Source: Candidatus Thorarchaeota archaeon
GTDB taxonomy: Archaea; Asgardarchaeota; Thorarchaeia; Thorarchaeales; Thorarchaeaceae
NCBI GenBank assembly: GCA_004524445.1
Contig: SDNP01000035.1
Span: forward strand, 1 to 28,134
Reading direction: 5' to 3'
DNA length: 28,134 nucleotides
How positions within the stretch are numbered: position 1 is the first letter of the stretch; every line of letters starts with the position of its first letter. The notes under the pieces are model-generated. The model did no database searches, was not told the origin of the DNA, and saw only the letters and a program-made list of their open reading frames with translations. Of this stretch, positions 4,311 to 10,748 are shown piece after piece. The position numbers and the translations under genes are program-made.

Positions 4311-6398
4311 TTACTGACTTTTAGTTAACCGCCTTCTTGCAAACCAGATACCGACCAAGATGAAAGGAATGCATACTACAATGAGCATGACAGGAAGTGT
4401 CGTATAGGGGAATCTGGGGTCTCCACCATTCATGAACTCCTCAATATTCGGGATTCCATCACCATCTGGGTCTTCTGCTGCATCATCCTCGTTCGGGTCA
4501 AGAGAGTAAAGGAGCTCCCAGCTGTCTGGCATTCCATCTTGGTCAGAATCCGAGCTAAACGGGTCTGTTCCTGCAAAGAATTCTTGAACGTTAGTCAAGC
4601 CATCTTCATCATAATCCAACTGTGCATCATCCTTTGTCGGATCCAAATTGTTCATGATTTCCCAGAGATCAGACATGATGTCAGAATCAGAGTCAGTATT
4701 GTGAGGATTCGTACGATTACCATATTCGTAGATGTTAAGCACTCCATCGCCATCAGGGTCCAAGCTCGCATCATCAATCAGGGCGTCTGTTCCATTGACG
4801 ACTTCCCATCCATCAGGAATTCCGTCTGAGTCGGAGTCAGCCTTTTTTGGGGCAGTACCATTTCCATACTCGTTGATGTTCGAGAGATAGTCACCATCAG
4901 GGTCTCGATGGGCATCAGGCAAGCATGGATTCAGCCCCTCTTCATATTCCCATAGGTCGGGCATACCATCCCTGTCGGTGTCCGTGTTATCAGAGGAGGT
5001 GCCGATTATGATTTCGACTGCATCGCTCAATCCATCACCATCTTGGTCCAGGTTGAAAAGCTCGCTATCCAGCCAGAATTGAGTGCTATCCTTTATTCCA
5101 TCATTATCCAGATCCTCATCATACATCGCTTTCAGGTTGAAGCTGACATCGGCCGACTCATTGCCATGAATCACTAACTCATAGAGACCAATCGAGTTCA
5201 GAGAAATATTCGCAATAAGCTCATCCTGAGAATTCTCTTGAACGCTACTGAATGTGAATATCTCCTCCTTTCCTGGGGAATACAGCTTCATTTTCAAACC
5301 CACGCCAGACCAACCGCCATTCAAGATTAATCGGGTAGTGGTTGAAATCGGTAGGTAATAGGAAAGATGAGTAGACGGACGAATATAACCGTAGTACTGG
5401 ATAGTATGAAGTTGCTCATGAGCTCTAGCCATGGTATATGCCATGCTTGCGCCAATAGAGGCTACGGCATCTCTTGCCACTGTATAATTGTAGAGCGGAT
5501 TGTCCCATGTATCCTCTGAACTGTGATAGGCAGTGTCAGAGTCAAAGCCGGATTCAAAGGCAAACAGGACATTCTCGTACCCCTCACTGAGGAATGAGGC
5601 ATGATCAGAACGGCTCCAACCACTGAATTGGTCATTCATGAGGGTTTTCACAAGGTTCCTACCGAAATTCTTACTCATGGCGCGGGATACTTGGGCAAAT
5701 TTCATGCTGTGGTCGTTGTGGACCATCAAGACTCTTTCATCTACAGGAGCATTCTCATCTTCGACAAGAAGCATGTCAATATTCCAGTAGGTAAGAATGT
5801 CAATACCACGAAGTTCGAATATGTTAGCCACCTCTCCACTTCCTACCAAGCCAATCTCTTCTGAGTTCCAAGCACAAAAGTAGATGTCCAAAGGCCATTC
5901 ATATTTTGACATAACGCGGGCAAGTTCAAGGACTGCAGCAACACCGGTTCCATCATCGTTCGCACCTGGCGCACCAGGCACAGAATCATAATGCCCACCA
6001 ACCATAAGAACAGGAGCTCCATCTGGAAGATAGCCGGGCAACCTTCCAACCACTGATTTGTGATTGCCAAGAATCTCAACTTCAATTCTCTCCTTCGAGA
6101 GAGCCTCTAACTGTTCAGATATCCAATTTCGAGCGTGTACGTTTGCTGCGCTGAAGTGGGGCGGGTTTCCGAGCGAGGTTGAACGAGAACCATTCTCAGT
6201 GAGTTTCTGAATAAAGGTGAAGTATTTTGCTTGTGAAACCCCCTGAAAGATAGAACGTGAAATGTCTTGGCCATAAATGCGAACGGGTTTCACAGAGTCG
6301 TCTTGTGGAAGTTCTGGAATAGTAAGACCCGATGACGGGCATACGGGAACAATGAAAATGACAACTACGAGCATGCAGGCATATTGCTTTCTCGGCAT
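4311..6398 (-). CDS. membrane-anchored M28-family zinc aminopeptidase with Ca-binding (TSP3-like) repeats
   Basis: Metal ligands appear intact: GGHYDS, GANDDGTG, NSEEIG, NIDM, SDH and YHSSED. Start moved from 6458 to ATG 6398 (MPRKQYACMLVVVIFIVP, signal-like, with AGGAAG upstream). DxDxDG repeats follow, then a C-terminal TM and RRR. Confidence 0.88.
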   Translation of the reverse strand: MPRKQYACMLVVVIFIVPVCPSSGLTIPELPQDDSVKPVRIYGQDISRSIFQGVSQAKYFTFIQKLTENGSRSTSLGNPPHFSAANVHARNWISEQLEALSKERIEVEILGNHKSVVGRLPGYLPDGAPVLMVGGHYDSVPGAPGANDDGTGVAAVLELARVMSKYEWPLDIYFCAWNSEEIGLVGSGEVANIFELRGIDILTYWNIDMLLVEDENAPVDERVLMVHNDHSMKFAQVSRAMSKNFGRNLVKTLMNDQFSGWSRSDHASFLSEGYENVLFAFESGFDSDTAYHSSEDTWDNPLYNYTVARDAVASIGASMAYTMARAHEQLHTIQYYGYIRPSTHLSYYLPISTTTRLILNGGWSGVGLKMKLYSPGKEEIFTFSSVQENSQDELIANISLNSIGLYELVIHGNESADVSFNLKAMYDEDLDNDGIKDSTQFWLDSELFNLDQDGDGLSDAVEIIIGTSSDNTDTDRDGMPDLWEYEEGLNPCLPDAHRDPDGDYLSNINEYGNGTAPKKADSDSDGIPDGWEVVNGTDALIDDASLDPDGDGVLNIYEYGNRTNPHNTDSDSDIMSDLWEIMNNLDPTKDDAQLDYDEDGLTNVQEFFAGTDPFSSDSDQDGMPDSWELLYSLDPNEDDAAEDPDGDGIPNIEEFMNGGDPRFPYTTLPVMLIVVCIPFILVGIWFARRRLTKSQ
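4407..5114 (-). repeat. acidic DxDxDG calcium-binding repeat array: four 48-aa double units (4407-4982) plus two single motifs
   Basis: Units have the form D(S/T)DxDGxPDxWE...P..DDA..DPDGDG..N..E...GT.P. There are 10 DxDxD-type motifs in total. Confidence 0.85.
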
Positions 6399-6501
6399 AA
6401 TCTTCCTTTTTTCTTGAAAATACATCAAGGTATTGATTAACGCTACTGGTTTTTTCAATGGTTAACAGTAAAAAGGAAGAATTACGTATAGGGGGTTACC
6501 G

Positions 6502-7836: not shown

Positions 7837-8325
7837 ATGACAGAACAGCAAGACAAGAGTCCTGTTGGCGATATGATGAAAGACCCAAATATTGGTCTAA
7901 TTGGAACCGGTGCATTGGTGTGGATTCTGAGCTTCTATGTACCATTTATTGGACCACTTCTTTCAACTGGTGGGTTCGCTCTCGTATGTTTGGCATCCGC
8001 AGTCACTGCTTTGAAGCGTCCCATTGACAAGGCAATGGTTGGCTTGATTATGGGTGCCATTATCCAAATTGTTGGAGGCTATCTAGCTGGGGTCTTCCTA
8101 ATTGGCTGGATTCTCTCGCCAATTCTGACAGTAGTGGGTGGAGTCATGATTATTTTCTTTTCAATTCCTCTCGTAGTTCAGACTGGAAAAATTCCATTCG
8201 TAGAGGAATTTCAAGAGGCAATCAAAAAGCAGGCCAAAGAAGACGAGGAGCCATCTGAGGAAACAACAGACACAACAGACGAAGCAGCACAAGGACAAGA
8301 AGAATTTAGTGACGAAGGATATTAG
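7837..8325 (+). CDS. hypothetical membrane protein (about 4 TM, internal 2-TM duplication, acidic C-terminal tail)
   Basis: Hydrophobic pairs 'YVPFIGPLLSTGG' and 'GVFLIGWILSPILTVVGG' look like a repeat. The tail is E/D/T-rich. Confidence 0.75.
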   Translation: MTEQQDKSPVGDMMKDPNIGLIGTGALVWILSFYVPFIGPLLSTGGFALVCLASAVTALKRPIDKAMVGLIMGAIIQIVGGYLAGVFLIGWILSPILTVVGGVMIIFFSIPLVVQTGKIPFVEEFQEAIKKQAKEDEEPSEETTDTTDEAAQGQEEFSDEGY

Positions 8326-8471: not shown

Positions 8472-10748
8472 GTGTTCTCTTGTAGTAAATGTGGTCAACC
8501 AGTTTATATCAAAAATGCAGAGCTTGAGGACCATATCCTCCGAATGGAAGTACAATGCTTGAATGGCCATAAGAGCATTAGGAGAATGGCTGAGCATCAA
8601 GCTGAAGAAATGGTTGAGGAAATCTTCGACAAACTGTTTGTATGCACCGAGTGCGGCTCTCTTATGAGTCAAGTTGACACTGGAGTTGATGACGAACGGG
8701 CTGAAAGCACATTTCTTTGTCCAATTCATGGAATCGAACGACGCGAATTCCCTGCGAAATTTCTCGCATCGATTTCACTTCTAAGTGCTGACATAGACAC
8801 CTCTCAATCAATAATTGATTCATTCAGATGTTCTCAATGTGGACATGTATATGTGATTAGAGAGATCGAGAAGAGAGATGGTCTATTCGAACTTGATGTT
8901 CGTTGCCCAAACGGACACGACTCAACCCGCTATATCTCTGAAGATATCGAGGAGAGATTGCTCACTAAGGTATTGCAGAGGCTGCTGCATTGTGATAGAT
9001 GTGGACTGCCAGGGACAATAGTGGAACTAGAAGAACGCAGAAAATCCATTCGAGCGCATGTATCATGCCCAACGCATGGAGTTTCAAAAAAGGACATTCC
9101 TAAAGATTTGGTTAAAGCAGTGAGGAAGGCTGAGGACGAGATTCCTGAAGACGCAGTCGTAAGAGCCATGCTAAATTCAACTCGATGCCAAATACCCTTG
9201 GCAATCCGAGAGATTGAGGATGACAAGTCAGGCTACAAGTTCAAATGTGTATGCCCAGGGCAAGGTGATGTCGCTGACATGGTACAACCTGTTCAATGGA
9301 ACGATTCCAATTCAGCACTCATTACAGAGGCTCTGCTGACATGCAGCGAATGTGGGCTATTCACACAGATTCGGGACTTGAAGGAAAAGAGAAATGAGAT
9401 CGAGTTTCGTGTCGTATGTCCAGTTCATGGCGTGTTGGAGCGAAAGGTTCCCAAAGAGGTCTTTTCAATCGTTTTAGATAAGGAGCAATCAATTGATAGA
9501 ATACCCTCTATTGTCAGAAGCTTGACCTGTCTTGCATGCAATAATCCACTTCATTTGAGAGATGTCCAAGAAAAACATGGGCTCATAGAATTTGATATGG
9601 ATGATAAAAAAGGTCACAGAACACAGAGATTCTTTACACCCGATATGGACCAAGATGCACTGGTGAGTATCTACAAAAATCTCTATCAGTGTCCCGAGTG
9701 CTATGAGCAGCTAGACCTGGTCTATTTGGATCCTCAGGATAGTAAGACGAGAGTTGTGCGTTTATGCCCATTGCATGGGAAATTTGTTCTGGATGTTCCT
9801 CATAACCATGCTGAAGCCCTAAAACTTGCCCACGAAGAGATAGAATTGGATAAATTGACACCCCCAGAGGAAGTTCCAACCCTAGATCAAGAGAGAGAAA
9901 TAGAACCGGAAATAGAGGTTTCCAGCCCACGAGGGAAAAATGTCAAAGTACTACGAGGCTGTGAAATAGTGGGGGGGAAGTTCGACTATAAGGTGAAAGT
10001 TCTGAATGACTCTGATTACGTCATCACAAATGTCACTGTAAGCATTGTTGCGTATCCTGAAGATTGCATGGACCTGGGTGGTGAGAATGTCAAAACCATT
10101 TCAAGGATTGAGGTCGGGGGCTTTAGAAGTCCGCAATTCACATTCTATCCCACTAAAGACTGCGTTCAGGGGAAAGTTGTCGCCACCGTTTCGTATATTG
10201 ATTTCAGAGATAGATTGCATACTGTTCAGGTTGAACCTTATCTTATCCGCTCTGTGTGTGATATGCTAAAGCCCACGGAGGCAAGTAGCAAAGAATTCGA
10301 CCTCGTGCTCAATGGCCTAACAAAGACAGACCAGGAACAATTGCTTGAGTGGAATGCCCGAGTGTTGTTTACAAAAGCGGAGAAACTGCTTCCGACGAAG
10401 AATTTCCATATTATTGACACGGAGGAGCATCTTGTCAGCAATCAGTTCATTGGCACGATTAGAGGATATGCAAAAGGGAAGTACACAGAAAAGAGAGTGG
10501 CAGTAGTTATGCTCATATCTGGACCAGAGATGGGCAGGCATGCAACTGTTAAACTTGAAGCATTGGGAGACGATATTGCTATGTTGCCCACCACAATCGA
10601 TGAGCTCGCTGAGACCATGGATTCCTGGATCTGTCTTAGGTGTGGTGCGCCCCTTGAGCCTGAGGAGGTCAAGCATCTTGGCAAGAGAACGCCGATAAGA
10701 TGTCGGTATTGCTCACATACATTGACAATGGGCCTCTATATGATGTAG
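8472..10748 (+). CDS. multi-zinc-ribbon repeat protein with C-terminal coatomer/adaptin appendage-like domain and terminal C4 zinc ribbon
   Basis: Eight CxxC-x21-C-x2/3-H units. The C-terminal beta-rich region followed by 'DMLKPTEASSKEF' resembles appendage domains. Ends with CLRC...CRYC. GTG start with GAGGT upstream. Confidence 0.8.
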   Translation: MFSCSKCGQPVYIKNAELEDHILRMEVQCLNGHKSIRRMAEHQAEEMVEEIFDKLFVCTECGSLMSQVDTGVDDERAESTFLCPIHGIERREFPAKFLASISLLSADIDTSQSIIDSFRCSQCGHVYVIREIEKRDGLFELDVRCPNGHDSTRYISEDIEERLLTKVLQRLLHCDRCGLPGTIVELEERRKSIRAHVSCPTHGVSKKDIPKDLVKAVRKAEDEIPEDAVVRAMLNSTRCQIPLAIREIEDDKSGYKFKCVCPGQGDVADMVQPVQWNDSNSALITEALLTCSECGLFTQIRDLKEKRNEIEFRVVCPVHGVLERKVPKEVFSIVLDKEQSIDRIPSIVRSLTCLACNNPLHLRDVQEKHGLIEFDMDDKKGHRTQRFFTPDMDQDALVSIYKNLYQCPECYEQLDLVYLDPQDSKTRVVRLCPLHGKFVLDVPHNHAEALKLAHEEIELDKLTPPEEVPTLDQEREIEPEIEVSSPRGKNVKVLRGCEIVGGKFDYKVKVLNDSDYVITNVTVSIVAYPEDCMDLGGENVKTISRIEVGGFRSPQFTFYPTKDCVQGKVVATVSYIDFRDRLHTVQVEPYLIRSVCDMLKPTEASSKEFDLVLNGLTKTDQEQLLEWNARVLFTKAEKLLPTKNFHIIDTEEHLVSNQFIGTIRGYAKGKYTEKRVAVVMLISGPEMGRHATVKLEALGDDIAMLPTTIDELAETMDSWICLRCGAPLEPEEVKHLGKRTPIRCRYCSHTLTMGLYMM
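8481..9779 (+). repeat. eight ~57-aa zinc-ribbon repeats alternating CxxGH and CPxHG endings (4 double units)
   Basis: CSKC/CLNGH, CTEC/CPIHG, CSQC/CPNGH, CDRC/CPTHG, STRC/CPGQG, CSEC/CPVHG, CLAC/DKKGH, CPEC/CPLHG. Confidence 0.85.

Follow-up and report, generated by a model that had tools for sequence, protein, structure and literature searches.

Within a 28,134-nucleotide stretch of DNA from Candidatus Thorarchaeota archaeon (assembly GCA_004524445.1, contig SDNP01000035.1, positions 1 to 28,134 of the forward strand; hereafter the window), we analyzed a gene for a protein of 758 amino acids (aa). The C-terminal domain of this protein is predicted with high confidence, on the basis of structural modelling, to have the ear (appendage) fold of the COPI and AP2 adaptors. 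It is capped by a C4 zinc ribbon and linked by a Pro- and Glu-rich hinge to an array of eight zinc-ribbon modules. We consider it fairly probable that the protein is a soluble scaffold composed of a zinc rod, a flexible hinge and a bilobed adaptor-type ear with its C4 cap, in which the ear would serve as a docking platform. The gene and the parts of its product are as follows.

8472..10748, plus strand: ear-bearing gene, 758 aa, GTG start (open reading frame [ORF] listing and translation)
8472..9857, plus strand: rod of eight ~57-aa zinc-ribbon modules, aa 1-462 (ligand pattern, conserved Cys/His columns, AlphaFold2 [AF2] model)
9858..9938, plus strand: hinge, Pro- and Glu-rich, aa 463-489 (low predicted local distance difference test [pLDDT] values, low conservation)
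9939..10274, plus strand: beta-sandwich (Ig-like) subdomain of the ear, aa 490-601 (AF2 strands, structural alignment)
10275..10625, plus strand: junction and alpha/beta platform of the ear, aa 602-718 (helix, strand, helix, four strands, helix)
10626..10745, plus strand: terminal C4 zinc ribbon, aa 719-758 (C721xxC724 ... C744xxC747)

The start codon is backed by the orthologues, the N-terminus of which reads MFSC as in the 758-aa protein. No transmembrane helix was predicted, indicating a soluble protein. Full-length orthologues are present in many Thorarchaeota genomes, and the ear gene is single-copy in its own genome (assembly 90% complete). Two minus-strand ORFs within the ear region, 10317-10676 (119 aa) and 10442-10684 (80 aa), were judged spurious, since the plus-strand frame is kept in hundreds of homologues.

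Predicted fold of the C-terminal ear

A sequence-only reading of the window had proposed an appendage-like domain at 9937-10625. This span corresponds to aa 489-718, although it is one base out of frame and filled with stops as given; the in-frame span starts at 9936 or 9939 and ends at 10625. The translation contains all strings quoted in that reading (FDYKVKV...SIV at aa 504-526, ISRIEVGG...SYID at aa 543-577 and IRSVCDML...NGL at aa 592-616), and the acidic Pro-rich linker was located at aa 462-486. The strand pair described as N-x5-N is actually N512-x7-N520, of which N512 is invariant in the family alignment.

For modelling, the ear-plus-ribbon module of 50 of 454 representative homologues was aligned (alignment A1) and used as AF2 input. 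The resulting model of ear and ribbon had a mean pLDDT of 92.5 and comprised three parts:

Model residues 6-116, protein aa 491-601: beta-sandwich (AF2, pLDDT mostly above 90)
Model residues 121-231, protein aa 606-716: platform (AF2; helix, strand, helix, four strands, helix)
Model residues ~235-270, protein aa ~720-755: small zinc ribbon (AF2, pLDDT ~95)

The expected order of a beta-rich and then an alpha/beta segment thus agrees with the predicted secondary structure. Furthermore, the platform directly follows the sandwich and is packed on it. Sandwich motifs conserved in A1 are RG.E.VGG.F.YKVKV.N, YP and GGFRSP.F.F.PTKDCV.G. The four Cys of the terminal ribbon are invariant in the 50 family members, and this part gave weak Zn_ribbon matches in Pfam.

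The best Foldseek matches of the ear model were the AP2 alpha ear, COPI (9qpq_H), the beta2 ear and gamma-COP, with E values from 5e-10 to 1e-6. The ear structures used for comparison were PDB entries 9qpq_H, 1b9k/1w80, 1e42, 1pzd and 2mj7 (COPI beta/gamma-COP; AP2 alpha, beta2; AP4 beta). Structural comparison gave the following scores, each followed by the length of the match (root-mean-square deviation [rmsd] in parentheses where available):

9qpq_H residues 722-953 (taken as beta-COP by numbering): 17.6; 224 (rmsd 3.6)
AP2 alpha ear: 15.6-16.1; 210
beta2 ear: 15.0; 206
gamma-COP: 13.4; 213
AP4-beta, platform only: 13.1; 112 (rmsd 2.4)
BBS9: 11.7; 190

In the two-subdomain matches, the sandwich aligned with the sandwich subdomains of COPI beta, AP2 alpha/beta2 and gamma-COP. 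In line with this, coatomer-beta models in the ESM Atlas matched the ear with template modelling (TM) scores of 0.71-0.77 over ~220 residues, and the named language-model neighbours of the ear were nearly all adaptin/COP appendage clusters. The best two-subdomain structural matches are therefore to the families named in the sequence-only reading, which bears out its proposal of a sandwich-plus-platform appendage. BBSome GAE and platform domains, also expected among the matches, were found, but they matched less well than the COPI/AP ears. The motif resemblances on which that reading had relied would be insufficient alone, since identity to eukaryotic ears in the structural alignments is 7-14%; it is the fold comparison that carries the claim. 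This similarity suggests homology to the eukaryotic ears.

Zinc-ribbon rod and hinge

The N-terminal 462 aa consist of zinc-ribbon modules, and Adaptin_N gave no match in the 758-aa protein; an alpha-solenoid trunk was not found. The rod modules carry Cys3His ligands in the forms CxxC...C(x)xGH and CPxHG, the two endings alternating along the array. Six sites are intact, units 5 and 7 are degenerate, and the Cys/His columns are invariant across 45 aligned sequences. The AF2 model of the rod (pLDDT 91.3, predicted TM score 0.78) shows three strands and one helix per module, and it suggests that the eight-module array is probably a rigid rod. A Foldseek search of the rod against the PDB revealed no global analogue and gave only beta-propeller-like repeat matches with a TM score of ~0.1. 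Rod homologues are confined to Thorarchaeota, where they comprise the 758-aa orthologues and a ~615-aa paralogue; the latter is missing from the assembly that contains the 758-aa protein.

The hinge (aa 463-489) reads LTPPEEVPTLDQEREIEPEIEVSSP. Toward the end of the rod model, pLDDT drops to 65 and then to 47, and the ear model starts at a value of 78; the hinge is probably flexible. In 42 orthologues, mean identity was 76% for the ear, 50% for the rod and 31% for the hinge, the least conserved segment. This gradient shows that the strongest constraint is on the ear. The layout suggested earlier, with a zinc-ribbon rod in the place of the trunk followed by a flexible linker and the ear, is thus supported by a confident eight-module model and by a low-confidence, poorly conserved hinge.

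Distribution of the ear module and predicted membrane tethering

An exhaustive HMMER search with aa 480-758 as the query yielded 454 representative proteins at E <= 1e-3. The ear-bearing representatives are 129-2867 aa long, and the ear-plus-ribbon module spans ~270 residues. It is nearly always C-terminal, with at most 15 residues after it in 105 of 139 representatives, and the terminal zinc ribbon is present in 91 of the 139. Among 251 sampled Asgard genomes, 119 contain the ear module, usually in several copies and with a maximum of nine matches per genome. It was detected in 55 of 59 genomes of the family that includes the genome of the window and in 51 of 54 genomes of another one; several further families in this sample gave no match. 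Distant members of the ear family carry the labels Helarchaeota and Thorarchaeota.

In 85 of 139 representatives, a transmembrane helix was predicted no more than 120 residues upstream of the module. Such helices lie farther upstream in 19 and are lacking in 35, the 758-aa protein included. The 12 residues after the helix have a mean net charge of +2.1 and are followed by a Pro-rich linker. Based on this positive-inside charge pattern and on the Cys4 ribbon, we infer that the ear of the membrane-anchored relatives is cytoplasmic.

The survey of Asgard genomes for other N-terminal partners of the ear, which the sequence-only reading had called for, revealed propellers, beta-helices, solute-binding domains, LRR, TPR and zinc-ribbon arrays. 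Ahead of the transmembrane helix, the ectodomain families include SBBP and LVIVD propellers, beta-helix/NosD, PKD, TSP3 and SBP_bac_5. In some relatives, the ear stands behind polytopic domains. The soluble ear proteins have LRR repeats, TPR repeats (both from Pfam) or zinc-ribbon arrays ahead of the ear.

Several individual proteins illustrate this variety. P0136 (987 aa), with a family-5 solute-binding domain at aa 97-537, a transmembrane helix at 654-672 and the ear at 719-985, is, to judge from its sequence, a substrate-binding protein with a predicted cytoplasmic coat-type ear. In other Thorarchaeota, paralogues of ~700-800 aa (P0002, P0006, P0008, P0012 and others) carry two complete ear-plus-ribbon modules in tandem, which are 54-63% identical to the ear of the 758-aa protein. 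Tandem arrays of three to five genes for proteins of ~350-430 aa ending in an ear were observed at G087:C18:43213-47344, G215:C15:4398-11260 and G140:C2:25782-30701. Representatives of this length have one N-terminal transmembrane helix, and the array proteins would thus be membrane-anchored ears.

A solenoid-plus-ear "mini-adaptin" was also considered, as a Thorarchaeota ear cluster of 407 aa in the ESM Atlas is labelled HEAT_2 in 80% of its members. For this putative architecture, Pfam gave no HEAT match in two ear proteins of 404-420 aa from other genomes (L016 655-1866 and L017 616-1875) or in several representatives of ~420-490 aa.

Genomic context and expression

The neighbours of the ear gene encode an M28 peptidase, an HD_assoc_2 protein, a small membrane protein, a UbiX-like flavoprotein, a DUF2070 protein, a PadR protein and two ABC exporters. 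Their order is conserved in two other Thorarchaeota genomes. Neither ESCRT genes (Vps4, ESCRT-III, Vps28 or Vps23) nor adaptor-subunit genes nor an ESCRT-I fusion were found at the ear locus. Two neighbours deserve mention.

7837-8325, plus strand: 162-aa membrane protein just upstream of the ear gene; no Pfam family, hydrophobic core and acidic Phe-containing C-terminal tail (...EEFSDEGY)
4311-6458, minus strand: M28-family peptidase, 715 aa, with a bacterial TSP3 repeat

A 35%-identical homologue of the 162-aa membrane protein is located at the matching place in another Thorarchaeota genome (L014, 7355-7882) but not in a third (L013). The 162-aa protein is a candidate ligand of the ear. TSP3 repeats are common to the M28 peptidase and to the ectodomains of several ear-bearing membrane proteins.

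Metatranscriptome contigs from salt-lake samples, with an identity of at least 99%, give partial coverage of the gene and of its ear region. These partial contigs are a weak hint of transcription, DNA carry-over being possible, and no meaning attaches to the stretches that they leave uncovered.

Proposed function and alternative explanations

According to the explanation we favor, the 758-aa protein would be a soluble cytoplasmic scaffold, in which a stiff rod of eight zinc modules is tethered to the ear via the short Pro/Glu hinge. The ear-plus-ribbon unit is a mobile C-terminal module in Asgard archaea, and in most relatives the ear would be held on a linker at the cytoplasmic face of a membrane anchor, with one of various ectodomains, or polytopic domains, ahead of it. 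The ear would dock a conserved partner, perhaps through short motifs within disordered tails, and the place or object of this interaction would depend on the variable N-terminal part. The analogy with the eukaryotic ears, the conservation gradient and the promiscuous use of the ear at the tethered end of other proteins make protein docking its most likely role.

Several points weigh against this explanation. The transmembrane helices of the relatives were called by a crude hydropathy window. The neighbours look like housekeeping genes in general synteny, with no operon suggested. There is no adaptor-complex context either: elsewhere in the 90% complete genome, Adaptin_N matched only below the threshold. 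Clat_adaptor_s, used to look for the medium (mu) and small (sigma) partner subunits of an adaptor heterotetramer, had no match in this genome and none in the control genomes and is hence uninformative.

Furthermore, neither Pfam hmmscan, run on the protein and on 50 family members, nor a comparison of the profile with PDB sequences detected a sequence link of aa 490-718 to the appendage families. Specifically, hmmscan (E <= 10 for the protein, E <= 1 for the 50 members) did not detect Alpha_adaptinC2, Alpha_adaptin_C, B2-adapt-app_C, Coatamer_beta_C, Coatomer_b_Cpla or COP-gamma_platf, and whole-genome searches with PF02883, PF09066 and PF14806 did not match the ear gene. A Coatomer_b_Cpla match elsewhere in the genome (C28, E 0.0014) was treated as spurious, the ORF resembling a phosphohexomutase when its translation was read by eye. 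In Pfam, NCBIfam and PDB sequences, aa 470-758 and the family profile matched only generic zinc ribbons and, at chance level, beta-arrestin and Sir2, and these matches were rejected; the remainder of the protein gave only sub-threshold zinc-ribbon matches in the same databases.

Finally, PMC2262067 describes FxxxW as a motif of the platform ligand site (F837/W840 in alpha-adaptin, and also in beta/gamma-COP). The junction helix of the Thorarchaeota protein has the sequence E-F-D-L-V-L, and its family follows the consensus F-x3-(L/I/V/T); in the alignment rows inspected (half of 50), position +4 from the junction-helix Phe is never a Trp. The Trp of FxxxW is apparently replaced by Leu/Ile/Val (F-x3-L), the positional equivalence following from sequence order alone. 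If these positions are equivalent, the classical Trp ligand site would not be conserved in this family, which may then bind a different ligand.

Part of this evidence also fits a resemblance at the level of the fold only, which we regard as unlikely but by no means negligible. An Ig-like sandwich on a TBP/helix-grip-like alpha/beta domain could have arisen by convergence or have diverged past any shared function, and it would then say nothing about coat or adaptor activity. The low identity in the structural alignments, the lack of a profile match and the nonconserved Trp of the presumed FxxxW motif are consistent with this, as are the terminal zinc ribbon and the membrane tethering, both of which are alien to eukaryotic ears. 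Self-association is a different possibility: ears on the tails of membrane proteins and on the soluble rod might bind each other and thereby gather surface proteins in patches or in a lattice. Proteins with two ears in tandem, the presence of several ear proteins per genome and the tandem arrays of small ear genes (e.g., G087:C18 and G215:C15) point in this direction, and nothing speaks against it directly. However, the 90% complete genome of the 758-aa protein contains a single ear gene, which excludes heterotypic clustering of ears as the role in this organism. Complex prediction for a pair of ear modules gave no answer (score 0.00), which counts neither for nor against, and we give self-association only a slim chance.

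Zinc ribbons are often nucleic-acid binders, and the protein could instead be a factor that grips RNA or DNA with nine zinc ribbons and a TBP-like platform. Orthologues bear automatic JGI names such as "RPC12/RpoP", "Elf1" and "RNA-binding Zn-ribbon", and the platform topology is TBP-like according to 10.1101/2024.02.06.579148. However, the JGI names derive from a generic similarity to zinc ribbons that stays under the Pfam cut-offs, the same ear occurs mostly on membrane proteins with extracellular domains, and the neighbours include no nucleic-acid-processing genes. This alternative is therefore highly improbable.

The scaffold with a docking ear can also be extended to a broader proposal, which we consider distinctly unlikely as a whole. 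In Thorarchaeota and several other Asgard lineages, the ear would primarily serve as a handle that is built into membrane proteins (surface receptors, solute-binding and polytopic proteins) on their cytoplasmic side. The soluble zinc-rod protein, of which the same ear is the most conserved part, would bridge or regulate a single machinery for sorting or clustering that these proteins share. The ear would then be older than its capture by alpha-solenoid trunks and would represent a cargo-side precursor of the eukaryotic adaptor-accessory networks.

Comparison with known systems

Eukaryotic vesicle coats use their ears as recruitment hubs, and the occurrence and attachments of ears in Asgard archaea bear on how the trafficking machinery was assembled during eukaryogenesis. 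The sequence-only reading had suspected that Asgard appendages might already be reported, and such ears have indeed been published. Liu et al. 2021 described Asgard proteins in which Vps28/Vps23 is fused to C-terminal adaptin and COPI-subunit domains (10.1101/2020.10.19.343400), and Eme et al. 2023 reported that Asgard genomes contain the Pfam domains of the alpha-adaptin C-terminus and the beta2 appendage without fusion to a trunk (PMC10307638). In the ESCRT systems of archaea, Makarova et al. 2024 found appendage regions that combine an Ig and a TBP part; one of them has a Zn ribbon and another follows a transmembrane linker. They placed the appendage domain in the last archaeal common ancestor (10.1101/2024.02.06.579148). 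These archaeal and Asgard proteins were interpreted as interaction hubs (10.1101/2024.02.06.579148; 10.1101/2020.10.19.343400; PMC10307638).

The existence of ears in Asgard archaea is thus already known, and the gain here is in architecture and testability rather than in a first discovery. In the main texts, we found no published description of the zinc-ribbon-capped ear family, of a rod of eight zinc ribbons joined to an ear, or of the predominance of ears on membrane-protein tails. In this family, the ear is seen as a stand-alone module that has been shuffled widely; it has a prokaryote-style zinc-ribbon cap and would mostly be tethered at the inner face of the membrane. The ~270-aa module is a concrete, conserved and small target for binding-partner screens, and the Asgard lineages now include cultured relatives.

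The known archaeal and Asgard appendage-like proteins (Vps28/Vps23-fused, UFM1-ligase-fused, Meth_adaptin and Halo_adaptin) share the region with an Ig-like and a TBP-like part, some having a Zn ribbon and some a transmembrane linkage. However, these known proteins were described from ESCRT neighbourhoods or as ESCRT-I fusions, whereas the zinc-rod ear gene has no ESCRT neighbours. A Promethearchaeota UFM1-ligase/PCI cluster in the ESM Atlas matched the ear only partially (TM score 0.42-0.50). The GAE and platform domains of the BBSome subunits BBS9, BBS2 and BBS7 are a weaker match than the COPI/AP ears, and the BBS proteins have an N-terminal beta-propeller and extra C-terminal helices. Compared to the large subunits of COPI and AP, the Thorarchaeota protein has a zinc-ribbon array instead of an alpha-solenoid trunk and a hinge of ~27 aa instead of ~100 aa. 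Where their ears have the Trp of FxxxW, the Thorarchaeota ear family apparently has an aliphatic residue, as judged by sequence order, and its platform is followed by a C4 zinc ribbon that is without counterpart in the eukaryotic ears.

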